A stretch of 64,000 nucleotides of DNA from Pseudolabrys sp. (GCA_035651015.1 DASRGN010000034.1:6800-70799), one strand, 5' to 3'. Positions 32,944 through 48,952 are shown, numbered from the stretch's first letter. Made by a program: numbers and translations. Notes: a model not told the origin generated them from the sequence alone.

Positions 32944-33021
32944 GTCGTTGCCGGGCTTGACCCGGCAACCCATCCCCTTTGCTTGATCTGATGGATGCGC
33001 GGGACGAGCCCGCGCATGACG
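32944..33021. repeat. Palindromic intergenic element, family C copy 2
   Basis: gtcgttgccgggcttgacccggcaacccatc...gatggatgcgcgggacgagcccgcgcatgacg. Confidence 0.75.
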
Positions 33022-33098
33022 AGGGCGGAGGGTCCTTGTCGTTTGCCCGCGCCTGTGGTGAGTCGGCGGGCTTTTGGCGTGGCGATGAGGACAGGGAC

Positions 33099-34064
33099 AT
33101 GGCGTATCGCGGGGCAATTCTCGACGACTACCAGAACGTGGTGCTGAAGACGGCCGACTGGTCGGGCGTGACCAAGGACATCGATTTCACGGTGTTCAAC
33201 GAGCCGATCCTCGGCGGGCCGGACAAGGTGGTCGCCGCGCTCAAGGACTTCGAGATCGTCTGCCTGATGCGTGAGCGCACGCTGTTCCGCGCCGACGTGA
33301 TCAACGCCCTACCCAAGCTCAAGCTGATCCTGACCAGCGGCATGCGCAACGCGGCGATCGACGTGAACGCCGCGGCGGAGCGCGGCATCCCGGTCTGCGG
33401 CACCGAGTCGCTCGGCCACCCGACCGCGGAGCTGACCTTCGGGCTGATGCTCGAGCTCACCCGCCACATCGGCTACGAGAACGCCCGCATGAAGGCCGGG
33501 CAAAAGTGGCAGATCACGATCGGCGAGGACCTCAACGGCAAGACGCTCGGCATTCTCGGGCTCGGCAAGCTCGGCTCACGGGTCGCCAAGGTCGGCAAGG
33601 CCTTCGGCATGAAAGTCATAGCCTGGAGCCAGAACCTCACCGCCGAAAAGGCCGCCGAGGCCGGCGCCACGCTGGTGAGCAAGGAAGAGCTGTTCAAGCA
33701 ATCCGACTTCGTCACCGTGCATCTGCAACTCAGCGGCCGCACCAAGGGCCTGGTCGGCGCCGCCGAATTGGGGCTGATGAAGCCGACCGCTTACTTCATC
33801 AATACCTCGCGCGGTCCCATTGCGGACGAGAAGGCGATCGAAGCCGCGCTGCGCGGCAAGAAGATCAAAGGCGCCGCGCTCGACGTCTACGATGTCGAGC
33901 CGCTGGCGCTCGACCACCCGTTCCGCAAGCTCGACAATCTGATCACCACGCCGCACCTCGGCTATGTCACCGCCGAAAATTACAAGGGCTATTTCGTGCA
34001 GTTCGTCGAAGACCTGCGCGCCTGGCTCGACGGCAAGCCGGTAAGGGTCATTCCGGCGAAGTGA
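33099..34064 (+). CDS. D-2-hydroxyacid dehydrogenase family protein
   Basis: LGLGKLG, INTSRG, ALDVYDVEP, TPHLGY. Confidence 0.92.
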   Translation: MAYRGAILDDYQNVVLKTADWSGVTKDIDFTVFNEPILGGPDKVVAALKDFEIVCLMRERTLFRADVINALPKLKLILTSGMRNAAIDVNAAAERGIPVCGTESLGHPTAELTFGLMLELTRHIGYENARMKAGQKWQITIGEDLNGKTLGILGLGKLGSRVAKVGKAFGMKVIAWSQNLTAEKAAEAGATLVSKEELFKQSDFVTVHLQLSGRTKGLVGAAELGLMKPTAYFINTSRGPIADEKAIEAALRGKKIKGAALDVYDVEPLALDHPFRKLDNLITTPHLGYVTAENYKGYFVQFVEDLRAWLDGKPVRVIPAK

Positions 34065-34065
34065 C

Positions 34066-35016
34066 TTAGAGGCGGAAGAACTTCGCCGCGTTCTCGTAAG
34101 CCACAGCCATCCTCACCTTCTCGTCCATTGCGGCACCGTCCATGTATTGCGCGGCCTCGTCAGAAGACTCGAACGGATAATCCGCCGCGAACATCACGTG
34201 ATCAAGCCCGAGCGCGGCAATGGCACAGTCGAGCGGCTCGTTGGAGTACATGCCGGAATTGGCCACGTAGAGATTGCGCTTGATGTAGAACGACGGCGGA
34301 TGCGGCAGACTGAAGCCGTAGAGCTTGGAGCGGCTGTCGAAGCGCCAGAGGAGATAGGGCAGCGTCTCGCCCATATGCCCGAGCATCAGCTTCACCTTCG
34401 GGAAGCGCTCGAAGATGCCGGCAAAGACGAGCCGCAACGCATGCGAGCCGGTCTCAAAGCCCCATTCCCAGGTGGCGCGGCGCAGCGCGCGATGGCCGTC
34501 GAGAACGCCCGCTACCGACACCGGATCGGTCGGATGGATATAGATCACGGCGCCGAGCGCGTCGGCACGCTCCCAGAATGGCGCCAGCGACGGGTGATCG
34601 AGATATTGCCCGTTGGTGTGGCCGTTGATCATGGCGCCGCAGAATTTGAGCTCGCGGACCGAACGCTCAAGCTCGTCGGCGGCGGCCTTGGCGTCCTGCA
34701 TGGCGAGATGCGCAAAGCCTGAATAACGATCCGGGCGCTTGGCGATCTCCTTGGCGAGGAAGTCGTTGCCCGCTTTGGCGGTGCGCACGGCCTTGGCCAC
34801 ATCGGGCTCGGCCTGCACACCAGGGCCGGTGATCGAGAGCACCGCGCGCGTAATGCCGCAGCGGTCCATGGTCTCGAGCCGCTGGCCGGAGAAATCCGAG
34901 AGCTGCTTGATCAGGCGATCGACGCGCTCGGGCGCGACCTCGCTCATGGTCGGCCGCCAATAATCCTCGAAGCCGGGGTAAAGAAAGTGTTCTTCCAGCG
35001 CGATTTTCTTGACCAC
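34066..35016 (-). CDS. Amidohydrolase_2 non-oxidative aromatic acid decarboxylase (gamma-resorcylate/LigW-like)
   Basis: IALEEHF, YIHP, LGHMGETLP and AADYPF metal ligands; GTG start with GGAGA RBS. Confidence 0.85.
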   Translation of the reverse strand: MVKKIALEEHFLYPGFEDYWRPTMSEVAPERVDRLIKQLSDFSGQRLETMDRCGITRAVLSITGPGVQAEPDVAKAVRTAKAGNDFLAKEIAKRPDRYSGFAHLAMQDAKAAADELERSVRELKFCGAMINGHTNGQYLDHPSLAPFWERADALGAVIYIHPTDPVSVAGVLDGHRALRRATWEWGFETGSHALRLVFAGIFERFPKVKLMLGHMGETLPYLLWRFDSRSKLYGFSLPHPPSFYIKRNLYVANSGMYSNEPLDCAIAALGLDHVMFAADYPFESSDEAAQYMDGAAMDEKVRMAVAYENAAKFFRL

Positions 35017-35067
35017 GGCCTCTCCCAGAATCCGGACACTTGCCTGTCCGGCGCATTTGGTGTTTCT

Positions 35068-35103
35068 TGTACCGTATATTGAGCTTAAGTGTACCGCGAT
35101 ACA
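35068..35103. promoter_or_regulatory. Candidate IclR operator pair
   Basis: TGTACCGTATATTG and TGTACCGCGATACA, starting 22 bp apart in the divergent promoter. Confidence 0.4.
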
Positions 35104-35156
35104 AGGCATAAGAACCTTGCTGCGGACAAAGTCCAGGGCGGAGCGTCGCGTATCCC

Positions 35157-35930
35157 ATGAACAAGCAGCTCGTTCCCAACGAGAAGAGCCAGGTGCAGGT
35201 GATCGCGCGCGCGGCGACGATCCTGCGCGCGCTGGAAGATGAAAATGCCGGGCTGAGCCTCGGGCAGATCGCGCAGCGCGTGAACCTCGCCCGCTCAACC
35301 GTGCAACGCATCGTCGCGGCGCTGGAGACCGAGAAGCTGGTCATCGCCGCCTCGCCGAACGGCCGCGTGCGGCTCGGACCGACCATCCTGCGGCTCGCCG
35401 CTTCGGTGCGCAGCGACTTCGTCTCCATGGCGCGGCCGTTCCTGGTGCGCCTGTCCAACGAGCTACGCGAAACCGTCGACCTGTCGATGGTGAAGAAAGA
35501 TCACCTGGTGTTCATCGACCAGGTGATCGGCTCGCACCGCCTGCGCACAGTGTCTGCGGTCGGCGAGACCTTCCCGCTGCATTGCACCGCCAATGGCAAG
35601 GCTTACCTCGCCACACTCGACGATCCGGCGATCGAGCGGCTGATCGGCCGCCACTATGAGGCGCGCACGCCGAAGACGCTCACCAAATTCGAGACGCTCA
35701 GCGCCGAGCTCAAGCCGGTGCGCAGGAGCGGCGTCGCCTTCGACCGCGAGGAGCATACGCTCGGCATCTGCGCCACCGGCGTCGCCATGCAGGATCCGCT
35801 CGGCAACTGGGTCGCGATCTCGGTGCCGGTGCCGACGCTGCGCTTCCAGAACCAGCACGCGATGATTGCCGAGCGCCTCTCCGCCACCAAGCACGCGCTC
35901 GAAGCGCACATGAACTCGATCGCGGCGTAA
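35157..35930 (+). CDS. IclR family regulator
   Basis: SLGQIAQRVNLARSTVQRI HTH; HCTANGKA; FDREEH. Confidence 0.95.
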   Translation: MNKQLVPNEKSQVQVIARAATILRALEDENAGLSLGQIAQRVNLARSTVQRIVAALETEKLVIAASPNGRVRLGPTILRLAASVRSDFVSMARPFLVRLSNELRETVDLSMVKKDHLVFIDQVIGSHRLRTVSAVGETFPLHCTANGKAYLATLDDPAIERLIGRHYEARTPKTLTKFETLSAELKPVRRSGVAFDREEHTLGICATGVAMQDPLGNWVAISVPVPTLRFQNQHAMIAERLSATKHALEAHMNSIAA

Positions 35931-35995
35931 GCGTCAGGCTTGCGCTGAATCAAGAAACGCAAGGCGCGCCAGCGCTGCAACAAGGAGACTAAGCC

Positions 35996-36838
35996 GTGGC
36001 CAAAAGAATTCGCGGCGTCATGTTCGAGGAAAACCTGAACAACAGCATGGGGCTGCAGTTCTACAACCTGTCCCATCGCTTCGGCTATCAGTCCCCGAAC
36101 TGGCCGTATTTCGAAGACGTCAAGATCGAACGCATCCACTACATGGCGAAGTCGGGCGTGCTGTCGCAGCGCATTACGACGTCCATGCACAACACCACGC
36201 ATATCGACGCGCCGGCGCATGTGGTGCAGGGCACGCCATTCATCGACGAGGTGCCGCTGCCGCACTTCTTCGGCTCGGGCATCGTGATCTCGATCCCGAA
36301 GAAGAAGTGGGAGCCGATCACCTATGACGATCTGCAGAAGGCCGCCGGCAAGATCGTGCGCCCGCGCGACGTGGTGATCGTCAACACCGGCTGGCACAAG
36401 CTCTACGACGACAGCGAGGACTATTTCTGCCGCTCGCCCGGCTTCGTGCCTTCCGCCGCGAAATGGTTCATCGAGAAGAAGGTGAAGGTCGTCGGCCACG
36501 ACACCCAGGCCAACGACCATCCGCTCGCCACTGCCATCGGTCCGCAGCGCAACGGCCCCTTACATCCGCATCTCGCCCAGGAATACAAGGAATGGTCCGG
36601 CGGCCGCGACTGGAAGGATGACTTCCCGGAATGGGAGCCGGTGCACCGCGCGCTGTTCAAGAACGGCATCATGGGCATCGAGAATGTCGGCGGCGACATC
36701 GACAAGGTCACCGGCCGGCGCTGCACCTTCGCCTATTTCCCGTGGAACTGGGATCGTGGCGACGGTTGCATCGTGCGCCTCGTCGCCATGCTCGATCCGA
36801 AACAGAAATTCCGGATCGAGCGCGGGGAGAAGTTCTGA
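35996..36838 (+). CDS. Cyclase family (kynurenine formamidase-like) metal hydrolase
   Basis: MHNTTHIDAPAH motif, VVIVNTGW, GIENV. Confidence 0.88.
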   Translation: MAKRIRGVMFEENLNNSMGLQFYNLSHRFGYQSPNWPYFEDVKIERIHYMAKSGVLSQRITTSMHNTTHIDAPAHVVQGTPFIDEVPLPHFFGSGIVISIPKKKWEPITYDDLQKAAGKIVRPRDVVIVNTGWHKLYDDSEDYFCRSPGFVPSAAKWFIEKKVKVVGHDTQANDHPLATAIGPQRNGPLHPHLAQEYKEWSGGRDWKDDFPEWEPVHRALFKNGIMGIENVGGDIDKVTGRRCTFAYFPWNWDRGDGCIVRLVAMLDPKQKFRIERGEKF

Positions 36839-37176
36839 TGATCGTGCGCAAATTCTCCGAAGCCAAACCTTACGAAGCACCGAACCATCGCGAGTACAAG
36901 TCGTTCCGCGTGTTCGGCGCCGAGATGGGCGGTTCGCAAACGCTCGTCTTCGGCATTTCCCACTTCCTGCCGGGCGGCGGCGCCGGGCCGGACTCCTCGC
37001 CGCCGGAGAAGATCTACTACGTGCTGGCCGGCGAGCTTACCGTGATCGCCGGCGGCAAAGAGCAGGTCATCAAAGCCGGCGACGCTTGCTATATCGGTCC
37101 CAACGAAAGCCGCGAGATCATCAATCGCGGCCATGATGTCTGCACGATTGCGGTCGCGGTCGCGCCGGTGAAATGA
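36838..37176 (+). CDS. Small cupin protein
   Basis: EKIYYVLAGEL and GDACYIGPNESR cupin strands; canonical His ligands not evident. Confidence 0.8.
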   Translation: MIVRKFSEAKPYEAPNHREYKSFRVFGAEMGGSQTLVFGISHFLPGGGAGPDSSPPEKIYYVLAGELTVIAGGKEQVIKAGDACYIGPNESREIINRGHDVCTIAVAVAPVK

Positions 37177-37200
37177 ACTGAGGGCAACAACAAGCGCCGG

Positions 37201-37282
37201 CGTCATCGCCCGCGCAGGCGGGCGATCCAGTAAACGCCGACCGTTGTGATTACTGGATGCCCCGCCTTCGCGGGGCATGACA
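37201..37282. repeat. Palindromic intergenic element, family C-like copy 3
   Basis: cgtcatcgcccgcgcaggcgggcgatccagta...tactggatgccccgccttcgcggggcatgac. Confidence 0.7.
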
Positions 37283-37304
37283 GGCTGTGCAGGTAGGAAA
37301 CGCC

Positions 37305-38108
37305 ATGTCCGAAGACTTTCTGAAAAATCCGCTGTCGCTGTTCGACGTCAAAGGCAAGGTCGCCATCGTGACTGGTGCGTCCGGCGCCTTCGGCGCGCTG
37401 GCGGCGAAAGTGCTGGCTGGCGCCGGCGCGCATGTCGTGCTCGCCGCCGGCAAGGCCGACGAGCTCAAGAAGGTCGCCGCCGAATGCGAGGCGCTGGGAG
37501 CCAAGACCGCGAGCGTCGCCGTGCGCCCGAGCTCGGAAGCCAATTGCGACAGAATCGTGCAGGCCGCGGTCGATAAATTCGGCCGCGTCGACATTCTCGT
37601 CGTCGGCTCCGGCAAGAACGATGTGTCGAAGATTACCGACATGGCACCGGAGCGTTTCCTCGATGTCATGGACGCCAATGTCACGCAGTCTTGGCTGATC
37701 GCACGCGCCGCCGGCAAGCAGATGCTCAAGCAGGGCGAGGGCGGCAAGGTGATCCTCATGTCGTCCGCGCGCGGGCTCCTCGGCCATCCGGCCGGCTACA
37801 CCGCCTATTGCGCGTCGAAATCCGCCGTCGACGGCATCACCAAGGCGCTCGGCTGCGAATGGGGCGACACCGGCATCACGGTGAACGCCATCGCGCCGAC
37901 CGTCTTCCGCTCGGCGCTGACCGCATGGATGTTCGATGACACCGATCGCGCCAAGGACGTGCGTAAGGCGTTCCTCGCCCGCGTGCCGAAGGGCCGGCTC
38001 GGCGAAGCGTCCGACCTCGCCGGACCGCTCCTCTTCCTCGCCTCGCGCGCATCGGATTTCTACACCGGCCACATCCTCTACGCGGACGGCGGCTATACGG
38101 CGGGCTGA
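37305..38108 (+). CDS. SDR oxidoreductase (gluconate 5-dehydrogenase-like)
   Basis: TGASGAFG, YCASK, VNAIAP. Confidence 0.9.
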   Translation: MSEDFLKNPLSLFDVKGKVAIVTGASGAFGALAAKVLAGAGAHVVLAAGKADELKKVAAECEALGAKTASVAVRPSSEANCDRIVQAAVDKFGRVDILVVGSGKNDVSKITDMAPERFLDVMDANVTQSWLIARAAGKQMLKQGEGGKVILMSSARGLLGHPAGYTAYCASKSAVDGITKALGCEWGDTGITVNAIAPTVFRSALTAWMFDDTDRAKDVRKAFLARVPKGRLGEASDLAGPLLFLASRASDFYTGHILYADGGYTAG

Positions 38109-38112
38109 TATT

Positions 38113-39018
38113 ATGAGCAAAGCGCGTATCGCCGTGATCGGTGCCGGGCTGATGGGCCACGGCATCGCGCAGGTGTTCGCGCTCGCCGGCCATGACGTCA
38201 GCATCTACGATTCTTTCGCCGCGACGCTGTCGAGCGCCAAGGAGCGCGTCGCCGCCAATCTGCGCGATCTCGGCGACGACACGACCGCCGTCGAACGGGT
38301 GACGCCGATCGCGGACCTCGCGCAAGCCGTGCGCGACGCCGATTATGTAGTCGAGGCAGTGCTCGAGGATCTGCCGCTGAAGCAGAAGCTGTTCGCCGAG
38401 ATCGAGCAGCATGTGCGCGGCAACACCATCCTCGCCAGCAACACATCGGTCATCCCGATCACCAAGATCATGGAGGGCCTGCGCGATCGCTCACGCGCGC
38501 TCGGCACCCACTGGTGGAATCCGCCCTATCTGGTGCCGCTGGTCGAAGTGATCGAGACGCAGTGGACCGCGCCAAAGGTCGTCGACTGGACCATGGCGCT
38601 GCATCGCGACGCGGGGAAGAAGCCGGCGCATGTGAAGAAGGACGTGCCGGGCTTCATCGGCAACCGGTTGCAACACGCTTTGTGGCGCGAGGCGATCGCG
38701 CTGGTCGAGCACGGGGTTTGCGATGCGCAGACCGTCGATGAGGTGATCAAGGCCGCGTTCGGACGCCGGCTGGCGGTCCTTGGGCCGCTGGAGAATGCCG
38801 ACATGGTCGGCACTGATCTGACGCTGGCGATCCACAAGACCGTGCTCGGCGATATCGACAGCCGTCCCGGCCCCTCGCCCTATCTCGAAGCATTGGTGAA
38901 AACCGGTAAGCTGGGCTTCAAAAGCGGCGAAGGCTTCCGCAGTTGGAGCCCGGAGCAGCAGGCTGCGCTGCGCCAAAAAGTGCTGGAGCACCTGAAGAAC
39001 GCGCGGGCGCAGGACTAA
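38113..39018 (+). CDS. 3-hydroxyacyl-CoA dehydrogenase family protein
   Basis: GAGLMGHG, EAVLEDL, ASNTS, HWWNPP, PGFIGNRL. Confidence 0.9.
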   Translation: MSKARIAVIGAGLMGHGIAQVFALAGHDVSIYDSFAATLSSAKERVAANLRDLGDDTTAVERVTPIADLAQAVRDADYVVEAVLEDLPLKQKLFAEIEQHVRGNTILASNTSVIPITKIMEGLRDRSRALGTHWWNPPYLVPLVEVIETQWTAPKVVDWTMALHRDAGKKPAHVKKDVPGFIGNRLQHALWREAIALVEHGVCDAQTVDEVIKAAFGRRLAVLGPLENADMVGTDLTLAIHKTVLGDIDSRPGPSPYLEALVKTGKLGFKSGEGFRSWSPEQQAALRQKVLEHLKNARAQD

Positions 39019-39029
39019 GGGAGACGACC

Positions 39030-40307
39030 ATGGCTCAGCAAACGACGATCTCACGGCGGACGCTGGTCAAGTCTGGCATCGGCGCATTGGCGGCGCCGGC
39101 GCTGCTCGGCGTCAGTGACGCGCAGGCGCAATCGGCAGTGATCAAGATCGGCCTGGTGAGCCCACGCACCGGACCGCTGGCCGGCTTCGGCGAGGCCGAC
39201 GGCTTCATCATCGACCAGGTGCGCAGCGTGCTCGCCAAGGGTCTGAGCAATAGCGGCAAGACCTACAAGGTCGAGATCATCGCCAAGGACAGCCAGTCGA
39301 ATGCCAGCCGTGCGTCGGAAGTCGCGTCCGAGCTCATCCTCGGCGACAAGGTCAACCTGATCATCGCCTCGGCGACGCCCGACACCACCAATCCGGTCGC
39401 CGACCAGGCGGAGGTCAACGAGGTCCCCTGCATCACCACCAATTGCCCGTGGCAGCCTTATTTCTTCGGCCGTAACGGCGATCCGGCGAAGGGCTTCACC
39501 TGGACCTACCATTTCTTCTGGGGGCTCGAAGACGTCATCGGCGCGTTCCTGGCTTTGTGGGACGAGTTGCCGACCAACAAGGTTGTCGGAGGCCTATTCC
39601 CCAACGACGCCGACGGCAATGCCTGGGGCGATCCCAAGCTCGGCCTGCCGCCTTCCTTGTCGAAAGCCGGCTACAAGCTCATCGATCCCGGCCGCTATCA
39701 GCTGATGAACAACGACTTCACCTCGCAGATCTCGGCGTTCAAGGCGGCGGGCGCGGAGATCGTCACCGGCAACATGATCCCGCCCGACTTCGCCACCTTC
39801 TGGTCGCAGGCGGCGCAGCAGGGCTTCAAGCCGAAGGTCGTCACCATCGGCAAGGCGCTCCTCTTCCCGTCGGTGATCGATTCACTGGGCGTCCGCGGCA
39901 ACGGGCTCACCAGCGAGGTCTGGTGGACGCCGCACCATCCCTACAAGTCAGGCCTCACCGGCCAGAGCGCAAAGGCGCTCACCGACGCGTATACCGCCGC
40001 GACCAAGCGGCCGTGGACGCAGCCGATCGGCTTCCAGCACGCGCTGTTCGAGGTGGCGATAGACGTGCTCAAGCGCGCCAAGAATCCAGCCGATGCCAAG
40101 TCGATCCTCGATGCCATTATCGCCACCGACTACAAGTCGATCGTTGGCCCGGTGAAATGGACCGGACAGCCGGTGAAGAACGTCACCAAGACGCCGCTCG
40201 TTGCCGGGCAGTGGCAGAAACAGGGCGACAAGTTCGAGCTGGTGATCGCCGAGAACAAGACCGCGCCGGATATCCCGCTCGGCGGCAAGCTCAAGCCGCT
40301 CTCGTAA
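39030..40307 (+). CDS. HAAT-type ABC substrate-binding protein with Tat signal
   Basis: SRRTLVK twin-arginine leader; IKIGLVSPRTGPLAGFG. Confidence 0.92.
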   Translation: MAQQTTISRRTLVKSGIGALAAPALLGVSDAQAQSAVIKIGLVSPRTGPLAGFGEADGFIIDQVRSVLAKGLSNSGKTYKVEIIAKDSQSNASRASEVASELILGDKVNLIIASATPDTTNPVADQAEVNEVPCITTNCPWQPYFFGRNGDPAKGFTWTYHFFWGLEDVIGAFLALWDELPTNKVVGGLFPNDADGNAWGDPKLGLPPSLSKAGYKLIDPGRYQLMNNDFTSQISAFKAAGAEIVTGNMIPPDFATFWSQAAQQGFKPKVVTIGKALLFPSVIDSLGVRGNGLTSEVWWTPHHPYKSGLTGQSAKALTDAYTAATKRPWTQPIGFQHALFEVAIDVLKRAKNPADAKSILDAIIATDYKSIVGPVKWTGQPVKNVTKTPLVAGQWQKQGDKFELVIAENKTAPDIPLGGKLKPLS

Positions 40308-40320
40308 TCGCCGGCACTGC

Positions 40321-41049
40321 ATGGCCCCGATCCTCGCGCTCGAAAATATCGCGAAGCGGTTCGGGGCCATTGTCGTCGCCGACGGCATCGACCTCGCGCT
40401 CGCGGATGGTGAAGCGCTCGGGATCATCGGCCCGAACGGCGCCGGCAAGACCTCGCTGTTCGGCATCATCACTGGAACGCTTGCCCCTGATGCCGGCCGC
40501 GTGCTGCTCGGGAGCGAAGACGTCACGAGGCTCACGCCGGAGCGGCGCTGCCGCAAAGGCCTCGCCCGCTCCTTCCAGATCCCGCAGCCGTTCGGCGGCA
40601 TGACCGTGTTCGAGAATCTCGTCGTCGCGGCCGCGTTCGGTTCAGGGCGCGCGGAGCGCGACGTTTATGCGGCGAGCGCGCAGTTGCTCGAACGCTGTGG
40701 GCTCACCGACAAGGCCAATCGCGCCGCCAGCAGGTTGACGCTGCTCGACCGCAAGCGGCTCGAGCTCGCGCGTGCGCTGGCGACGCAGCCGCGCGTGCTG
40801 CTGCTCGACGAGGTGGCGGGCGGTCTCACCGAGCACGAATGCGCGGCGCTGATCGCGCTGATCAAGGAGGTGCGCGCGAGCGGCATTTCCATCATCTGGA
40901 TCGAGCATGTGGTGCATGCGCTCCTTGCCAGCGTGGATCGATTGCTCGTGCTGCACAGCGGCCGCTTCATCGCGCAAGGGGACCCGCAGACCGTGATCCG
41001 CAGCCCGCAGGTCGCGGAAATCTATATGGGGATCGCCGCCGATGCCTGA
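40321..41049 (+). CDS. ABC ATPase, LivG-like
   Basis: [17 protein letters not shown]. Confidence 0.92.
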   Translation: MAPILALENIAKRFGAIVVADGIDLALADGEALGIIGPNGAGKTSLFGIITGTLAPDAGRVLLGSEDVTRLTPERRCRKGLARSFQIPQPFGGMTVFENLVVAAAFGSGRAERDVYAASAQLLERCGLTDKANRAASRLTLLDRKRLELARALATQPRVLLLDEVAGGLTEHECAALIALIKEVRASGISIIWIEHVVHALLASVDRLLVLHSGRFIAQGDPQTVIRSPQVAEIYMGIAADA

Positions 41050-41746
41050 GCCGCTGCTCGAAGTGCGCGGGCTCGACGCCTATTACGGCGACTTCCAGGC
41101 GCTGTTCGGCGTCAACCTGCGCGTCGAGGCGGGCGAGGTCGTCGCCGCGATCGGCGCCAACGGCGCCGGCAAGTCGACGCTGCTGAAAAGCATCGCCGGG
41201 CTGATGCGGCCGCAACGCGGCGACATCTTGTTCGACGGCGCGCCGATCGGCGGCCTGCCCGCATTCAGCGTCGTCGGGTGCGGCATTGCGCTGGTGCCGG
41301 AAGGCCGCCGCCTGTTCCCGTCGCTATCGCTCGAAGAAAATCTGCTGATCGGCGGCCAACTGCGGCGACCCGGACCATGGACCCTGCAACGCGTCTACGA
41401 GCTCTTCCCAATGCTCGCCGAGCGCAAGCACATGCCGGCGCCGGCACTCTCCGGCGGCCAGCAGCAGATGGTCGCCATCGGCCGCGCGTTGATGGCGAAC
41501 CCGAAGCTTCTCTTGTGTGATGAGATCAGTCTCGGCCTGGCACCGATCGTCGTGCGCGACATCTATGCGCGATTGCCGCAGATCGTCGGCGAAGGCTCAT
41601 CGCTCGTCATCGTCGAGCAGGACATCGTGCAGGCACTCAAGGCCGCGCGCCACGTCACCTGCCTGCAGGAAGGCCGCGTAGCGCTGCAAGGCGAGGCCGC
41701 GAGCCTCACCGCTAAGTCGATCTCCGCGGCGTATTTCGGGATGTGA
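41042..41746 (+). CDS. ABC ATPase, LivF-like
   Basis: GANGAGKST, LSGGQQQM, VPEGRRLF. Confidence 0.92.
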   Translation: MPEPLLEVRGLDAYYGDFQALFGVNLRVEAGEVVAAIGANGAGKSTLLKSIAGLMRPQRGDILFDGAPIGGLPAFSVVGCGIALVPEGRRLFPSLSLEENLLIGGQLRRPGPWTLQRVYELFPMLAERKHMPAPALSGGQQQMVAIGRALMANPKLLLCDEISLGLAPIVVRDIYARLPQIVGEGSSLVIVEQDIVQALKAARHVTCLQEGRVALQGEAASLTAKSISAAYFGM

Positions 41747-41749
41747 TGC

Positions 41750-42616
41750 GTGAACTGGGTCAACATCATCCTGCAAGGCGTGCTGGTGGGCGGGCTCTAC
41801 GCCATGTTCGCCGCCGGCCTCGCTTTGATCTTCGGGGTGATGCGGCTCGTCAACATCGCCCATGGCGACCTGATCGTGCTCGCGGCCTATGTGGCGCTGA
41901 TGGTGACGAGCGCGGTCGGGCTCAATCCGCTCGTCTCGCTCGTGCTCGTGGTGCCGATCATGGCGGCGATCGGCTACCTGCTGCAGCGTGGTCTCCTCAA
42001 CCGCACGCTCGGCGACGATCTCCTGCCACCACTCCTCGTCACCTTCGGGCTCTCGATCATCATCCAGAACGGATTGCTCGAGCTGTTCACCGCCGACAGC
42101 CGCAAGCTGCAGGCGGGATCGATCGAGGTCGCCGCCTTCCAGGCGATTCCCGATGTGTGGATCGGCGTGCTGCCGCTCATTCAATTCGTCGTTGCGGTGG
42201 CGGTCATCGGCGGATTGCAGCTCTTGTTTTATCGCACGGCGCTTGGCCGCGCCTTTCGCGCCACCTCGGACGACCAGGCGGTGGCGCAACTCATGGGCCT
42301 CGATACCCGCCGCGTCTTCGCGCTGGCCATGGCGCTGTCGCTCGCCGTCGTCGCCATTGCGGGCGTGTTCCTTGCGGTGCGCGCCAATTTCGACCCGGCC
42401 ATAGGCCCGGCGCGGCTGATCTTCGGGTTCGAGGCGGTGATCATCGGTGGCCTCGGCAGCATGTGGGGCACGCTCGCCGGCGGTATCATCCTCGGGGTCG
42501 CGCAGGCCGTCGGCGCGCAGATCGATCCCGGCTGGCAGGTGCTCGCCGGGCATGTCGCCTTTCTCGTTGTGCTGGCGCTGCGCCCCGGCGGCCTGTTTCC
42601 GAAGGTTGCGGCATGA
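41750..42616 (+). CDS. ABC permease, LivH-like
   Basis: GVMRLVNIAHG; IIGGLGS. Confidence 0.92.
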   Translation: MNWVNIILQGVLVGGLYAMFAAGLALIFGVMRLVNIAHGDLIVLAAYVALMVTSAVGLNPLVSLVLVVPIMAAIGYLLQRGLLNRTLGDDLLPPLLVTFGLSIIIQNGLLELFTADSRKLQAGSIEVAAFQAIPDVWIGVLPLIQFVVAVAVIGGLQLLFYRTALGRAFRATSDDQAVAQLMGLDTRRVFALAMALSLAVVAIAGVFLAVRANFDPAIGPARLIFGFEAVIIGGLGSMWGTLAGGIILGVAQAVGAQIDPGWQVLAGHVAFLVVLALRPGGLFPKVAA

Positions 42617-43623
42617 AGGTCGCACATGCCACTCGCTCCAGTCAGATCGGCACCGCGCTGTTCGCGCTGGCGCTGGTGATCCTCGCCGCCGCCCCACTCT
42701 GGGGCGACCGGCAGGCCCTGCGGCTGCTCGCGGAGATCTACACCTTCGTCGCCTTGGCCAGTCTGTGGAACCTGCTCGCCGGCTATGCCGGCCTTGTCTC
42801 GGTCGGACAGCAGGCCTTCGTCGGCTTCGGCGGTTATCTCCTCTTCGCGCTCACCATGCTCGCCGGCGTGCATCCGCTCCTCGCCATCCCGATTGCCGGG
42901 TTTGCCGCCGCCATCGTCTCGGTGCCGGTCGCCGCGCTGATGTTTCGGCTGCGGGGCCACTATTTCGCCATCGGCACCTGGGTGATGGCGGAAGTCTTCC
43001 GCCTGGTGGCGGCGCAGATCTCTGTGCTGGGCGGCGGCTCCGGCGTCAGCCTGCCGGCCTCGATCGTCATCGGCATGGCGCCGACGCGGACGCTGCGCGA
43101 GTTCGAGACCTATTGGCTGGCGCTCGTGCTCGTCGCCGGGATCATCACCGCCATCGTCATGCTGCTGCGCTCGCGCTACGGATTGGCGCTCACCGCCATC
43201 CGCGACAACGAGCTCGCGGCGCGCAGCAACGGCGTCAACGTGCTGCGCATCAAATACATCGTCTATGTGATCACCGCCTTCGGCACGGCGATGGTCGGCG
43301 CGCTCATTTTCCTGCAGAAGCTGCGCATCTCGCCGGACACCGCCTTCAGCGTCAACGATTGGACCGCCTATGTGATTTTCATCACCGTGATCGGCGGGAT
43401 CGGCCGCGTCGAAGGGCCGATCATCGGCACGGTCATCTTCTTCCTGCTGCGGCAGACGCTGGCCGATCTCGGCAGTCTCTACCTGATGATGCTCGGCGTC
43501 GTGGCGATCGTGGTCATGCTGTGGGCGCCGAAAGGTCTGTGGGGGCTTGTCGTCGCGCGTTTCGGCTGGCAGGCATTCCCCCTGCAGCGGCGGCTCATTG
43601 TCAGCACGCCCGAGGAAGGATGA
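42613..43623 (+). CDS. ABC permease, LivM-like
   Basis: WNLLAGYAGLVSVG, RLRGHYFAIGT, AIRDNELAARSNG. Confidence 0.92.
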   Translation: MKVAHATRSSQIGTALFALALVILAAAPLWGDRQALRLLAEIYTFVALASLWNLLAGYAGLVSVGQQAFVGFGGYLLFALTMLAGVHPLLAIPIAGFAAAIVSVPVAALMFRLRGHYFAIGTWVMAEVFRLVAAQISVLGGGSGVSLPASIVIGMAPTRTLREFETYWLALVLVAGIITAIVMLLRSRYGLALTAIRDNELAARSNGVNVLRIKYIVYVITAFGTAMVGALIFLQKLRISPDTAFSVNDWTAYVIFITVIGGIGRVEGPIIGTVIFFLLRQTLADLGSLYLMMLGVVAIVVMLWAPKGLWGLVVARFGWQAFPLQRRLIVSTPEEG

Positions 43624-44633
43624 GCATGAGCGACACGATCATCGATATTTTTTGCCATATCTTCCCGGACCGCTTCTTCCAGGAGATGACCGCGGCCGCA
43701 CCGAAGCTCGAGAATATCGGCATGCGCTTGCGTGGCATCAAGAAGCTGTTCGACCTCGATGAGCGCTTCCGCGAAATGGATCAGTTCGGCGATTACCGCG
43801 AGATCATCTCGCTGCCCAATCCGGCGATCGAGGATCTGGTCAAGCCGGATGTCGGCCTGCGGCTTGCGCGCATCGCCAACGACGCCATGGCAGAGCTGTG
43901 CGCCAAGCACCCCAAGCGCTTCCCCGCTTTCGCCGCCGCTATCTGTCTTACGGACATCGACGGCTCGATCAAGGAGGCCGAGCGCGCGATCACAACGCTC
44001 GGGGCGCGCGGCGTACAGATCTTCACCAGCATCGCCGGCGAGCCCCTCGATCAGCCGAAATTCGATCCGTTCTTTGCGTTACTGGCGAGGCACGGCCTGC
44101 CGGTGTGGCTGCATCCGGTGCGCACCGCGGCGATGCCGGATTATCCGTCCGAGCAGAAGTCACGTTACGAGATGTGGTGGTGCTTCGGCTGGCCTTACGA
44201 CACCTCCGTCGCCATGCTGCGCCTGGTGTTTAGCGGCCTGCTCGACCGCTATCCGAAGCTCAAGATCATCACCCACCATCTCGGCGGCATGATCCCGTTC
44301 TATGACGGACGCGTCGGCCCCGGCCTGAAGGTGCTCGGCGCCCGCACCTCGGATGAGAACTATTCGCAGGTGCTACCATCGCTCAAACGCCCGCACATGG
44401 ACTATCTGCACGACTTTTACGGCGATACCGCGCTGTTCGGCGGCGGTGTGCATGCCGTGCGCTGCGGGCTCGAATTCTTCGGCGCCGAGCACGTGGTGTT
44501 CGCTACCGACACACCGCTCGGCCCGATCGCACCAACGATCAAGGCCATCGATGCGCTCGGGCTCACCGCCGAAGATCGCCGGAAAATTCTCTGTGGGAAC
44601 GCGGAGCGGCTGCTGAATATGAAGTTCAGCTAG
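43620..44633 (+). CDS. Amidohydrolase_2 family protein
   Basis: DIFCH, WLHP, THHLGG, FATDTP. Confidence 0.88.
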   Translation: MSMSDTIIDIFCHIFPDRFFQEMTAAAPKLENIGMRLRGIKKLFDLDERFREMDQFGDYREIISLPNPAIEDLVKPDVGLRLARIANDAMAELCAKHPKRFPAFAAAICLTDIDGSIKEAERAITTLGARGVQIFTSIAGEPLDQPKFDPFFALLARHGLPVWLHPVRTAAMPDYPSEQKSRYEMWWCFGWPYDTSVAMLRLVFSGLLDRYPKLKIITHHLGGMIPFYDGRVGPGLKVLGARTSDENYSQVLPSLKRPHMDYLHDFYGDTALFGGGVHAVRCGLEFFGAEHVVFATDTPLGPIAPTIKAIDALGLTAEDRRKILCGNAERLLNMKFS

Positions 44634-44642
44634 CCCGCATTC

Positions 44643-44855
44643 TTAGTGCGACCTGACCTTCTTCTTGGCTTCGCCCAAGATCACGCCGGTCCAGCTCGGT
44701 GGATCGCTGGCGGGGAAGCTGTCTTCTGAACTGATCACGACCTCATCGTCCTTGGCGCTGACCTGGCTGCGCTCCTTCTGCTTTTGCTGTTTGTCCCCCT
44801 TATCCTTTTCCAAATGCGGATCGGGGTGTTGATGGCGATTCATGCCTGTCTCCAT
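44643..44855 (-). CDS. Small hypothetical protein with SFPASDPP motif
   Basis: SSEDSFPASDPPSWT; start at 44855 or 44843. Confidence 0.65.
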   Translation of the reverse strand: METGMNRHQHPDPHLEKDKGDKQQKQKERSQVSAKDDEVVISSEDSFPASDPPSWTGVILGEAKKKVRSH

Positions 44856-45008: not shown

Positions 45009-45638
45009 ATGACAGCGTCTCGCCCCGCTCCATCGTCCTCCTCACGCGGCTTCAGCCGGCGGAACTTCCTCACCTCCACGGTGGTATCGACCATGAGTGT
45101 CAGCCTCCTCGAGCGGCCGTCCGCCGCCAAACCCGCGGCCGCGACGCCATCCGACGTGCGCAGCCCTCTATCCATGACGTTGCGCATCAACGGCAGCGAC
45201 CACCACCTGGCACTCGACTCGCGCACCACGCTGCTCGATGCGCTGCGTGAGCACATCGGGCTCACCGGCAGCAAGAAAGGCTGCGATCAGGGCCAGTGCG
45301 GCGCCTGCACGGTGCTCATCGACGGGCGCCGCGTCCTCTCCTGCCTGACGCTCGCCGCGGTGGCCGAAGGCCATGAGGTCGTCACCATCGAAGGTCTCGC
45401 CAAGGCAGATGGGACGCTGCATCCGATGCAGCAGGCCTTCATCGATCACGACGCTTTCCAGTGCGGTTATTGCACGCCCGGCCAGATCATGTCGGCAGTC
45501 GGCTGCGTCAACGAAGGACACGCCGGGAGCGATGCGCAGATACGCGAATACATGAGCGGCAATCTCTGCCGCTGCGGCGCTTATGTGAACATCGTCGACG
45601 CCATCAATCAGGCGAAGACCAAGATGAAGGAGGCCTGA
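45009..45638 (+). CDS. PaoA/YagT-like 2Fe-2S subunit with Tat signal
   Basis: SRRNFL; GCDQGQCGACT; QCGYC; NLCRCG. Confidence 0.92.
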   Translation: MTASRPAPSSSSRGFSRRNFLTSTVVSTMSVSLLERPSAAKPAAATPSDVRSPLSMTLRINGSDHHLALDSRTTLLDALREHIGLTGSKKGCDQGQCGACTVLIDGRRVLSCLTLAAVAEGHEVVTIEGLAKADGTLHPMQQAFIDHDAFQCGYCTPGQIMSAVGCVNEGHAGSDAQIREYMSGNLCRCGAYVNIVDAINQAKTKMKEA

Positions 45639-45639
45639 C

Positions 45640-46668
45640 ATGCGCCCCTTCCAATACGAGCGCATCGCCGATGCGCACGCCGCCGTGCAGGCCGGCATGA
45701 CCGCAGCTTCGCCGGCGAAAGAGCCCTCGGTGCTGACCCCCGTGCAATATCTAGCCGGCGGCACCAATCTGATCGACATGATGAAGCTCGACATCATGCG
45801 GCCGCAGCGGCTCGTCGATATCAATGCGCTCGGGCAAGGGCGGCTCGGCCGCATCGAGACGAACGGGAACGGACTATGGCTCGGGGCGCTCGCGCGCATG
45901 GCGCAGGTGGCCGACCATCCCGAGGTGAAGCAGAATTATCCCGTGATCGCCGAAGCGCTCGCGCTGGCCGCCAGCGCGCAGCTGCGCAACATGGCGAGCC
46001 TCGGCGGCAACGTGCTGCAGCGAACGCGCTGCAGCTATTATCGCGATGTCTCGTACACCGAATGCAACAAGCGCAATCCAGGCTCCGGCTGTGCGGCCAT
46101 GGACGGCGTCAACCGCACGCACGCCGTGCTCGGCGTCAGCGATCAGTGTATCGCGACGTATCCCGGCGACTTCGCCCAGGCGCTGATCGCGCTCGACGCC
46201 AAGGTCGAAGTGGCGGGAACGCGCGGTTCGCGCAACATTCCTTTTGCCGAGCTGCATCGCCTGCCGGGGAGCACGCCGCAGCTCGAAACGGCGCTGGCGC
46301 CGGGTGAGCTGATTGTCGCGTTTTCGATCCCGGCGCTGCCGTTCGCCAAGCGCTCGCGCTATCTCAAAGTCCGCGATCGCGAATCCTACGAGTTCGCGCT
46401 GGCCTCCGCCGCGGTCGCTCTCGAGATGGACGGCAACACGGTGCGTCAGGCGCGTATCGCGCTCGGCGGCGTCGCCACCGTGCCGTGGCGTGCGCGCACC
46501 GCGGAAGAGCGGCTCAAAGGCGTCACGCTCGACGACGAGGCGCTCAACGGCGCAGCCGATCTCGCCTTCGCCAATGCGGCGCCACGCGCCCACAACGCCT
46601 TCAAGGTCGAGCTCGGCAAACGCACCCTGATCCGCGCGCTGCGCGAGACCGCGGCCATGGAGATCTGA
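45640..46668 (+). CDS. PaoB/YagS-like FAD subunit
   Basis: AGGTNLID, QLRNMASLGGN, four Cys (RC..C..GC..C), KVRDRESYEFA. Confidence 0.92.
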   Translation: MRPFQYERIADAHAAVQAGMTAASPAKEPSVLTPVQYLAGGTNLIDMMKLDIMRPQRLVDINALGQGRLGRIETNGNGLWLGALARMAQVADHPEVKQNYPVIAEALALAASAQLRNMASLGGNVLQRTRCSYYRDVSYTECNKRNPGSGCAAMDGVNRTHAVLGVSDQCIATYPGDFAQALIALDAKVEVAGTRGSRNIPFAELHRLPGSTPQLETALAPGELIVAFSIPALPFAKRSRYLKVRDRESYEFALASAAVALEMDGNTVRQARIALGGVATVPWRARTAEERLKGVTLDDEALNGAADLAFANAAPRAHNAFKVELGKRTLIRALRETAAMEI

Positions 46669-46669
46669 C

Positions 46670-48952
46670 ATGAACCGAGCCGCTCCCGAAGCCAAAGCCA
46701 ATATGGGCCAGCCCGTCCCGCGTTACGACGCGCGGCTCAAGGTCACCGGCGAAGCGCGCTACCCTTCCGACATGCCGGTCGGAAATCCAGCCTTTGCCAT
46801 GCTGGTGACGAGCCCGATCGCCCGAGGCCGCATCAACACGATCGATGCGAGCGAAGCGCAGGCCGTGCCCGGCGTGCTCGACATCCTCACCTACGAAAAC
46901 ACGCAGGAGCTCAAGCAGATCAAATACGCCCCCGGTGGCGGCGGTCCGAGCACCTCGATCCAGGGCTACGGACCGGAAATCGCGCATGACGGACAGATCG
47001 TGGCGCTCGTCGTCGCCGAAACCTACGAGGCGGCGCGCGAGGCGCACTACAAGCTGAAGATCGACTACGTATCCGAACAGCCGAGCGCCAGTTTCGGCGC
47101 GCCAGGTGCCTCGGAAGAAGACGCCAGCAAAGCCTCGGCGCGGGCGAAGGAGCTGCCGCAAGCCGGCGACGCCGAAGGGGCATTCTCCTCTGCCGAGGTG
47201 AAGCTCGACGTCGAATACGCCACGCCGACCCAGCATCACAATGCGATGGAGCTGTTCACCACCACCTGTGCGTGGACCGACGGGCAATTGACCGTCCACG
47301 AGCCGAGCCAGTTCATGTACGGCTTGAAGAACGCAACGGCGCAGCGGCTTGGCATCAGCCCCGACAAGGTGCGTGCCGTGAGCCGCTTCGTCGGCGGCGC
47401 CTTTGGCTCCAAAGCGCAGCAGACGCCGCGCACGGCGCTGGTTGCGCTCGCCGCCAAGCGGTTGAACCGGCCGGTGAAGCTCGTCCCCACGCGCGACCAG
47501 GGCTTCACCATCGCGACTTATCGCGCCGAGACCAAGCATCACATCCGCATGGGCGCGCAGCGTGACGGCAAGATTGCTTCCTTCATCCACGAAGGCTTCG
47601 AGGTCACCTCGCGGCCCGATCCGTACTGCGTCGCTGGCGTCGAGGACAGTGCGCGCATGTACGGCTATGGCGCGGTGAAGACGCATGTGACGATTGTGCA
47701 TGCCGACCGCAACACGCCGGGCTTCATGCGCTCGCCGCCGGTGGTGCCCTATATCTACGCGCTGGAAAGCGCCATGGACGAGCTCGCGATCAAGCTCAAC
47801 ATGGATCCGGTCGAGCTGCGCCGCGTCAACGACGCCATGCAGGACGCGACCGGCAAGCCCTGGAGTAGCCGCTCATTGATGCAGTGTTACGATGCGGCGA
47901 AGGAGGCCTTCGGCTGGTCGAGGCACAATCCGCAGCCGGGATCGATGCGCGAGGGCAACTGGTTGATCGGCTGGGGCTGCGCCAGCGCGTTCTATCCGAG
48001 CCATGTCGGCGCCGCGGCGGCGCGCGTCCGGCTTATGTCGAACGGCGAAGCGATCGTGCAAATTGCCGGCCACGATATCGGCACCGGCGCGTACACCGTG
48101 ATCGGGCAGATGGCCGCGGAACGCCTGGGCCTTCCGGTCGAAGCGGTGACCGTCGAAATTGGCGACAGCAACCTGCCGCCCTGCCCCGTTGCCGGTGGCT
48201 CGAACAACACCGCCAGTACCGGCTGCGCGGTGACGAAGGCTTGCGACGCCATCCGCGATCGCCTGGCGCGCGCCGGCGCCAACCAGGAAGCACCGCAGCG
48301 GCGACCGCCCGCCAACGTGCCGGAAACGCAAGGCCGCGGCGCCCCGGCGCCGCAGGATGCGCGACAGCTGCGCGAGACCGCCTTCAAGAAGCTCGGCGTC
48401 GGGGCCATCGAGGAATATGCCGAATTCCTCCCCGAGGGCAGCAAGCCCGACGCGATGCAGAAGCTCTATGCCGGGCAGCCGTCACTCGGCGGCGGCTCGA
48501 TGGGCAAGAAGCTGATGTATGCCATGGGCGCTGAATTCGTCGAGGTGCGCGTGCACGCGTTGACCCGTGAAATTCGCGTGCCGCGCATCATCGGCGCTTT
48601 TGCCGGCGGCCACATCGTCAATCCGCGCACCGCGCGCAGCCAGTATATCGGCGGCATGGTCTGGGGCATTGCCTCGGCGCTGCACGAAGCGACCGAGATC
48701 GACGAACGGAATGCGCGCTACATCAACGACAACTTCGCCGACTACCTGGTGCCGGTGAATGCCGACATCCAGGAGATGGAAGCAATCCTCATCTCGGAGG
48801 AGGATCACGACGTCAATCCCATCGGCGTCAAAGGCATCGGCGAGCTCGCCAATGTCGGCACCGCTGCCGCGGTCGCCAATGCGGTCTATCACGCCACCGG
48901 CGTGCGCGTGCGGCAACTGCCGATCCGCTTGGAGAAGTTGTTGACGACGTAG
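46670..48952 (+). CDS. PaoC/YagR-like molybdopterin subunit
   Basis: KVTGEARY, HHNAME, GGAFGSK, DIGTG, KGIGE. Confidence 0.9.
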   Translation: MNRAAPEAKANMGQPVPRYDARLKVTGEARYPSDMPVGNPAFAMLVTSPIARGRINTIDASEAQAVPGVLDILTYENTQELKQIKYAPGGGGPSTSIQGYGPEIAHDGQIVALVVAETYEAAREAHYKLKIDYVSEQPSASFGAPGASEEDASKASARAKELPQAGDAEGAFSSAEVKLDVEYATPTQHHNAMELFTTTCAWTDGQLTVHEPSQFMYGLKNATAQRLGISPDKVRAVSRFVGGAFGSKAQQTPRTALVALAAKRLNRPVKLVPTRDQGFTIATYRAETKHHIRMGAQRDGKIASFIHEGFEVTSRPDPYCVAGVEDSARMYGYGAVKTHVTIVHADRNTPGFMRSPPVVPYIYALESAMDELAIKLNMDPVELRRVNDAMQDATGKPWSSRSLMQCYDAAKEAFGWSRHNPQPGSMREGNWLIGWGCASAFYPSHVGAAAARVRLMSNGEAIVQIAGHDIGTGAYTVIGQMAAERLGLPVEAVTVEIGDSNLPPCPVAGGSNNTASTGCAVTKACDAIRDRLARAGANQEAPQRRPPANVPETQGRGAPAPQDARQLRETAFKKLGVGAIEEYAEFLPEGSKPDAMQKLYAGQPSLGGGSMGKKLMYAMGAEFVEVRVHALTREIRVPRIIGAFAGGHIVNPRTARSQYIGGMVWGIASALHEATEIDERNARYINDNFADYLVPVNADIQEMEAILISEEDHDVNPIGVKGIGELANVGTAAAVANAVYHATGVRVRQLPIRLEKLLTT

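Follow-up and report, generated by a model that had tools for sequence, protein, structure and literature searches.

A probable operon for reductive phloroglucinol degradation in Pseudolabrys, with a divergent decarboxylase gene and no TAL gene in the cluster

The reductive degradation of phloroglucinol is best known from Clostridium scatologenes, where the pathway enzymes PGR, DPGC, TfD and TAL have been characterised (Zhou et al., mBio 2023, PMC10470551). PGR, the phloroglucinol reductase, is an SDR-family protein that reduces phloroglucinol to dihydrophloroglucinol. DPGC, the dihydrophloroglucinol cyclohydrolase, is a Mn-dependent cyclase-family enzyme that opens the ring hydrolytically in a retro-Claisen reaction. 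TfD is annotated as a 3-hydroxyacyl-CoA dehydrogenase, yet it oxidises a free acid to triacetate, and the lack of the Lys and Asn that contact CoA serves to recognise it; TAL, a member of the BKACE family, then splits triacetate with the use of acetyl-CoA (PMC10470551). Data Set S4 of the same paper lists clusters from several Alphaproteobacteria, including Bradyrhizobium, Mesorhizobium and Novosphingobium pentaromativorans US6-1. The subject here is a gene cluster at positions 34066-44633 of a 64,000-nt stretch of Pseudolabrys sp. DNA (GCA_035651015.1, DASRGN010000034.1:6800-70799), termed the window and numbered from its first letter. The cluster is probably an IclR-controlled operon that lets the cell degrade phloroglucinol reductively, without need of oxygen, and its form is specific to Xanthobacteraceae. 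The pathway itself has been known since 2023 and the chemistry is not new; of interest are the lineage-specific features, namely a predicted feeder decarboxylase, the lack of TAL in the cluster, and a cupin and a second amidohydrolase_2 with no assigned step.

The closest described arrangements are predicted phloroglucinol clusters on three plasmids, which were found by a tblastn search of plasmids with the window cyclase as query. The cluster on pLA3 of N. pentaromativorans consists of genes for a TetR regulator, cyclase, cupin, SDR, 3-hydroxyacyl-CoA dehydrogenase-like (HACD) protein, MFS transporter and BKACE. Those on pUSP2 of Aminobacter sp. MSH1 and pDY25-C of Pacificitalea manganoxidans have an IclR regulator, cyclase, cupin, SDR, HACD, HAAT-family ABC transporter and BKACE. 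The window has the identical order cyclase-cupin-SDR-HACD and, in common with the Aminobacter and Pacificitalea clusters, the HAAT transporter and the IclR regulator. Identities to the three plasmid clusters are 64–78% for the cyclase, 62–76% for the SDR and 55–62% for the HACD protein, and the solute-binding protein (SBP) of the transporter is 65% identical to the SBP at the same position in Pacificitalea. The IclR protein is 45–50% identical to those of the Aminobacter, Pacificitalea and Mycobacterium riyadhense clusters. There are also differences. All three plasmid clusters finish with TAL, whereas the window has a second amidohydrolase_2 gene, here AH2, in that place, and none of the three has a counterpart of the decarboxylase gene DC1. 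The iclR gene is divergent in Aminobacter and Pacificitalea (pLA3 has a TetR regulator in its stead), whereas in the window iclR heads the operon and it is DC1 that is divergent. The Aminobacter and Pacificitalea clusters additionally hold an MBL-fold hydrolase.

The likeness extends to more distant systems. With C. scatologenes the window shares an SDR reductase, a cyclase-family C-C hydrolase, an HACD-like dehydrogenase, a small cupin and a regulator. It differs in that TAL (BKACE), thiolase and CoA-transferase are not in the cluster, an ABC importer stands in place of an MFS transporter, there is an extra gamma-resorcylate-type decarboxylase as well as AH2, and the host is a soil alphaproteobacterium. 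A record from Acetoanaerobium has the clostridial-type order cupin-SDR-HACD-cyclase-BKACE, with 35–45% identity to the window proteins. A published note points out that Rv1714-Rv1716 of Mycobacterium tuberculosis resemble the Clostridium phloroglucinol genes. On a plasmid of M. riyadhense, genes for SDR, HACD, cyclase, cupin, BKACE and IclR are grouped together (identities to the window: cyclase 62%, SDR 49%, IclR 50%); the gene order is different, decarboxylase and ABC importer are lacking, and the BKACE, from another subfamily, shares about 32% identity with the alphaproteobacterial TAL.

The PGR, DPGC and TfD steps can be provisionally assigned in the window by orthology to the biochemically characterised pathway. 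The predicted DPGC is encoded at 35996-36838 (+ strand; PF04199). It has the metal motif MHNTTHIDAPAH, of the pattern HxxTHxDxPxH, and retains the signature residues of DPGC: W36-P-Y38 is the counterpart of Trp20/Tyr22 in the C. scatologenes enzyme, a pair that tells it from isatin hydrolase, which has Ile/Leu there (PMC10470551). The pLA3 cyclase, to which it is 64% identical, comes from an organism whose DPGC is listed in the 2023 paper (PMC10470551). The SDR gene (37305-38108, +; PF13561/PF00106) is predicted to encode an NADPH-dependent PGR. The top PDB match of its product is 5g4k/5g4l, with 174 bits and about 43% identity, the runner-up having 140 bits, and a PTVFRSxLTxWMFD loop is common to the two. 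The HACD-family gene (38113-39018, +; PF02737 and PF00725) is predicted to encode TfD, an (S)-3-hydroxy-5-oxohexanoate dehydrogenase. Its best match in both PDB and NCBIfam is FHMPC dehydrogenase, a family member that acts on a free acid; identity is 45% to the clostridial-type homologue, next to the 55–62% to the alphaproteobacterial cluster homologues.

Between the cyclase and SDR genes lies the gene for a small cupin of 112 aa (36838-37176, +; PF07883). The HxH motif and the His of the second motif are substituted, and the canonical metal site has lost three of its four ligands; on this ground a role as a Dke1-like acetylacetone dioxygenase was ruled out. What is retained across phyla is a set of invariant residues (Tyr, His, PGG, Asp, Arg and Asn). 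The cupin accompanies the pathway in alphaproteobacterial, mycobacterial and clostridial clusters, and its top NCBIfam match is NF050094, a model of a 113-aa M. tuberculosis cupin. The C. scatologenes study, silent on such a protein in its text, includes a 113-aa cupin in its protein mass-spectrometry supplement (PMC10470551). An Atlas search with the cupin returned generic cupin clusters only. In-frame fusions of cyclase and cupin are found, e.g. P0005 (394 aa) and other proteins with both PF04199 and PF07883, and from these it may be argued that cyclase and cupin act together. We regard this His-less protein as a conserved pathway accessory.

These assignments suggest the following scheme. 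The HAAT transporter would bring in the substrate, and the divergently encoded DC1 would turn 2,4,6-trihydroxybenzoate, a fragment of the flavonoid A-ring, into phloroglucinol. PGR would reduce this to dihydrophloroglucinol with NADPH, the Mn-dependent DPGC would cleave the ring in a retro-Claisen hydrolysis that yields (S)-3-hydroxy-5-oxohexanoate, and TfD would oxidise this free acid to triacetate. Family scans revealed no hydroxylase or ring-cleavage dioxygenase gene inside the cluster. The lack of both an oxygenase and CoA-activating enzymes would be explained because the ring is reduced and hydrolytically opened and the product is oxidised as a free acid. No homologue of phloretin/DAPG hydrolase was found in the organism's own genome with an Acetoanaerobium query.

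An initial annotation of this DNA, made before any comparison, had proposed an oxygenase-free route of decarboxylation, hydrolysis and NAD(P) redox steps, which agrees with the logic of PGR, DPGC and TfD, and had suggested that the HACD-like enzyme may use a free acid, which the TfD precedent and FHMPC dehydrogenase as closest characterised relative make likely. It had noted no CoA ligase or thiolase nearby, and there is none within about 5 kb. All the genes that it named were found at the locus in Pfam, NCBIfam and PDB searches, with boundaries refined. It had left the substrate open and had named, as grounds for its own refutation, that the cluster maps to a described pathway; the core (cyclase, SDR, HACD-like protein, cupin and IclR) is orthologous to that of phloroglucinol clusters and does map to such a pathway, the reductive phloroglucinol route (PMC10470551).

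Genes were called from a listing of open reading frames (ORFs) and their translations, and families were assigned by Pfam, NCBIfam and PDB searches. The eleven genes from iclR (35157-35930, +; PF09339 and PF01614) through AH2 (43620-44633, +; PF04909) follow one another in the same orientation. Adjacent genes overlap or are 0–13 bp apart, except for a 65-bp gap ahead of the cyclase gene and one of 128 bp ahead of the SDR gene; the cyclase stop is overlapped by the cupin start. The HAAT importer (39030-43623, +; PF13458, PF00005 twice, PF02653) is complete, with a Peripla_BP_6 SBP that has a Tat signal (39030-40307, +; PF13458), two ATPases (40321-41049 and 41042-41746, +; PF00005 in each) and two BPD_transp_2 permeases (41750-42616 and 42613-43623, +; PF02653). 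The second permease was recognised by translation and by 62–69% identity to annotated permeases.

The 128-bp gap holds a REP-like palindromic repeat (37198-37281), found by folding and blastn. The nested palindrome of about 85 nt folds at -64 kcal/mol (z = -4.2) and has 66 blastn matches genome-wide, many of them about 85 nt in length with 85–90% identity. Related copies occupy the same cupin-SDR gap in several other Pseudolabrys loci. The repeat may influence how stable the mRNA is or how strongly one half of the operon is expressed relative to the other.

DC1 (34066-35016, -; PF04909) encodes a gamma-resorcylate/LigW-type amidohydrolase_2 decarboxylase of 316 aa. Its start is the GTG at 35016, which gives the N-terminus MVKKIALEEHF; an alternative ORF of 410 aa that begins at an upstream TTG would run into iclR. 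The best PDB matches are 3s4t and 2dvt (233 and 224 bits), gamma-resorcylate (2,6-dihydroxybenzoate) decarboxylases of Polaromonas sp. JS666 and Rhizobium sp. MTP-10005, with about 40% identity across the full length. The ALEEHF, YIHP, GHMGE and ADYPFE segments of DC1 align with both. DC1 keeps E-x-H, the histidines of YIHP and GHMGE and the aspartate of ADYPFE, at the metal-binding and catalytic positions of gamma-resorcylate decarboxylase. DC1 differs from these enzymes in that it forms a subfamily of its own, tied to phloroglucinol genes and not to a resorcinol hydroxylase/hydroxyquinol pathway, and in that its predicted substrate has an additional 4-hydroxyl group relative to gamma-resorcylate.

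The association of DC1 with the cluster is tight and extends over many genera. DC1 is directly upstream in 73 of 83 loci, a count that takes in loci with a cyclase at least 83% identical to that of the window; in the 73, phloroglucinol genes are the only pathway genes clustered with it, and a resorcinol-catabolism context was not found. By hand tally over 250 Xanthobacteraceae genomes, 48 of 53 DC1 orthologues (at least 59% identity) are within 5 kb of a cyclase orthologue. Relatives at 49–56% identity sit elsewhere, also in genomes without the cluster, and the neighbourhoods of those at 50–56% have no genes in common. In G009, which is among the 24 nearest relatives, a single-strand operon reads IclR-cyclase-cupin-SDR-HACD-TAL-DC1, so that DC1 comes after TAL. 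When 42 distinct DC1-iclR intergenic regions are aligned, a sole conserved block emerges, at 35067-35105 in the window, which contains two TGTACC half-sites 22 bp apart; this pattern occurs once in the 5.6-Mb genome. It is a candidate IclR operator, perhaps common to both divergent promoters. The possibility raised initially, that the decarboxylase is not co-regulated with the operon, is not borne out by the tight linkage and the shared intergenic element.

The best reading of DC1 is as a putative decarboxylase of 2,4,6-trihydroxybenzoate (phloroglucinol carboxylate). The argument is that the product must suit PGR, and 2,4,6-trihydroxybenzoate should be the only o,o'-dihydroxybenzoate that gives phloroglucinol on decarboxylation.

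Genome-neighbourhood comparison, which had been recommended at the outset, shows the same gene order in dozens of genomes of Pseudolabrys and other Xanthobacteraceae, and the arrangement is not due to chance. The locus scan brought up close relatives only. Of the 250 Xanthobacteraceae genomes sampled, 68 contain a cyclase orthologue, as do 3 in an even sample of 400 genomes from the class. Across Pseudolabrys the cyclase is 85–93% identical. A paralogous type of cluster, with two tandem cyclases about 50% identical to that of the window followed by a cupin (L020, 3940-5955; L127), occurs in many Xanthobacteraceae genomes; L127 adds SDR and HACD-like genes, and P0123 is a fused double cyclase. 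The tandem-cyclase cluster may represent a sister pathway for a related ring compound.

TAL is the one published enzyme for which the cluster offers no candidate by family: Pfam scans found no PF05853 (BKACE/TAL) gene in the window cluster. Among the 24 nearest relatives a TAL-type BKACE is found in G009 only, 77% identical to the Aminobacter TAL. In another genome the in-cluster TAL gene is broken by TGA and TAG stops (G443:C38:43332-44187, locus L107), and this looks like a snapshot of TAL loss from the cluster. Without a TAL of its own, the cluster must leave triacetate to be dealt with elsewhere. The organism's own genome has four BKACE genes outside the cluster. The closest is a stand-alone gene on contig C46 (66131-67063, -; L011, 1474-2409), the product of which is 55–60% identical to cluster TALs. 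BKACEs of this type are conserved at 77–95% identity across Pseudolabrys and are found in every genome of the genus checked, including six without a cyclase orthologue, and in other families too. Triacetate might be handled by this genus-wide BKACE or, less likely, by the co-transcribed AH2; the C46 BKACE as a stand-in for TAL is plausible but unproven.

It should be pointed out that several observations weigh against the phloroglucinol assignment. Of the 69 related loci that have enough downstream sequence, 63, the window among them, have no TAL in the cluster, and six have it in cis. The C46 BKACE lends no specific support, because it is present in genomes lacking the cluster. The locus counts overstate independence because the loci come from related species. 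Identity to the clostridial-type genes of the Acetoanaerobium record is just 35–45%. Enzymes of the alphaproteobacterial clusters are assigned from sequence alone, and the substrate of DC1 from context and family only. Gamma-resorcylate decarboxylase reportedly accepts 2,4,6-trihydroxybenzoate (Sheng et al., 2018), and 5g4k/5g4l is reportedly the PGR from Clostridium described by Conradt et al. (2016); a literature search gave confirmation of neither.

The 3′ end of the operon raises the question of whether AH2 takes over the last step, decarboxylating or hydrolysing triacetate, a beta-keto acid. If true, this would be a CoA-independent ending not yet described. AH2 is in the exact slot, after the second permease, that TAL has in Aminobacter and Pacificitalea; its start overlaps the permease stop as ATGA (43620). 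Its PDB matches are 3ij6 (150 bits) and LigW (115–120 bits). It belongs to the decarboxylase branch of amidohydrolase_2, is related to 3ij6, retains the catalytic residues of that branch (the histidines of WLHP and HHLGG and the aspartate of ATDTP) and has the N-terminal motif IDxxxH. The near absence of TAL among the 24 nearest relatives fits such a role, as do the different, unrelated amidohydrolase_2 subfamilies in which other TAL-less clusters end. However, TAL and AH2 are side by side in five loci, 33 of the 69 have neither, and AH2 adjoins the cluster in 23 of the 69, while further orthologues are remote from it or belong to genomes that lack the cluster; the neighbourhoods of these remote copies have no conserved neighbours. 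The link of AH2 to the pathway is loose, and its candidacy as a strict replacement of TAL is weakened by the loci with both genes and by the copies away from the cluster. We regard a takeover of the last step by AH2 as quite improbable. The recurrent 3′-end amidohydrolases could be further feeder decarboxylases or could represent an alternative fate of triacetate. Somewhat less improbable, though still unlikely, is the broader proposition that the Pseudolabrys-type pathway lacks the published last enzyme, with for example a CoA-independent ending by AH2, and that DC1 is in addition the first dedicated phloroglucinol-carboxylate decarboxylase.

The two amidohydrolase_2 genes that flank the operon, both of decarboxylase type, could also be taken to decarboxylate substituted acids, the cluster then degrading an analogue such as methyl- or acyl-phloroglucinol or another 1,3,5-oxygenated ring. 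The differing 3′-end subfamilies among cluster variants are in keeping with this, and the tandem-cyclase paralogous cluster of the same family suggests diversified substrates. Yet the cyclase, SDR and HACD proteins are 55–78% identical to those of TAL-carrying clusters listed as phloroglucinol clusters, and the Trp/Tyr pair by which DPGC recognises its substrate is retained, so an analogue as substrate is doubtful. A route for an N-heterocyclic acid, e.g. hydroxypicolinate, in which a molybdenum hydroxylase hydroxylates the ring before decarboxylation and hydrolysis, draws on a three-subunit enzyme of the XDH family encoded directly downstream (45009-48952), with a Tat-signal 2Fe-2S subunit, a FAD subunit and a Mo subunit, and on the C19 locus described below, which likewise brings Mo-hydroxylase genes together with a cyclase gene, an HACD-like gene and a pair of amidohydrolase_2 genes. 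The downstream enzyme is PaoABC-like and with its Tat signal corresponds to the periplasmic aldehyde oxidoreductase type. Its genes are missing from the syntenic loci checked, the large subunit having been found in none of the 80 closest loci, and the phloroglucinol clusters to which the core is orthologous do not have it. The initial annotation had kept a heterocyclic acid as an option, but nothing in the cluster points to one and the neighbouring hydroxylase is not conserved with it; this route is very improbable. Hardly any probability attaches to a sugar-acid or lactone pathway, with the SDR as sugar dehydrogenase, an L-gulonate-3-dehydrogenase-like HACD and amidohydrolase_2 lactonases. 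It would account for gluconate 5-dehydrogenase and KduD as top NCBIfam matches of the SDR and for lambda-crystallin among the PDB matches of the HACD-like protein, but all such matches are below family cut-offs, both amidohydrolase_2 proteins match decarboxylases and not lactonases, and the case that orthology and synteny make for a phloroglucinol cluster is far stronger.

The genes for the molybdenum enzyme are inserted between AH2 and a udgX gene; in the G015 genome a udgX homologue is found about 330 bp past AH2. Membership in the cluster was rejected for lack of synteny in relatives, and the enzyme is an unrelated insertion. Between AH2 and these genes is an antisense ORF of about 67 aa (44643-44845, -), hydrophilic and rich in Lys, Asp and Glu. 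On the other side of the cluster lies a gene for a D-2-hydroxyacid dehydrogenase (32979-34064), the synteny of which with the cluster is confined to the genus.

A second region of the genome, on contig C19 at about 47.5–60.2 kb (L015), contains genes for an HACD-like protein (37%), a gamma-resorcylate-decarboxylase-like protein (39% to DC1) and a further amidohydrolase_2, together with large and small Mo-hydroxylase subunits, an ABC transporter and a cyclase-family paralogue (31–33%). It was rejected as a true phloroglucinol cluster, as it has no SDR or cupin and belongs to a different pathway. The C19 locus looks like a separate pathway, possibly for an N-heterocycle.

Read as a phloroglucinol operon, the cluster shows where the published scheme is incomplete, namely in the replacement of TAL in the many clusters without it and in the function of the universally co-inherited cupin. 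Phloroglucinol is a common ring fragment from flavonoids, tannins and phlorotannins, and the reductive route would make it a carbon source without oxygenases. The predicted feeder decarboxylase points to a direct entry into the pathway for acids derived from the flavonoid A-ring, 2,4,6-trihydroxybenzoate being an example. The abundant soil Xanthobacteraceae would appear to carry a highly conserved form of the reductive phloroglucinol pathway.

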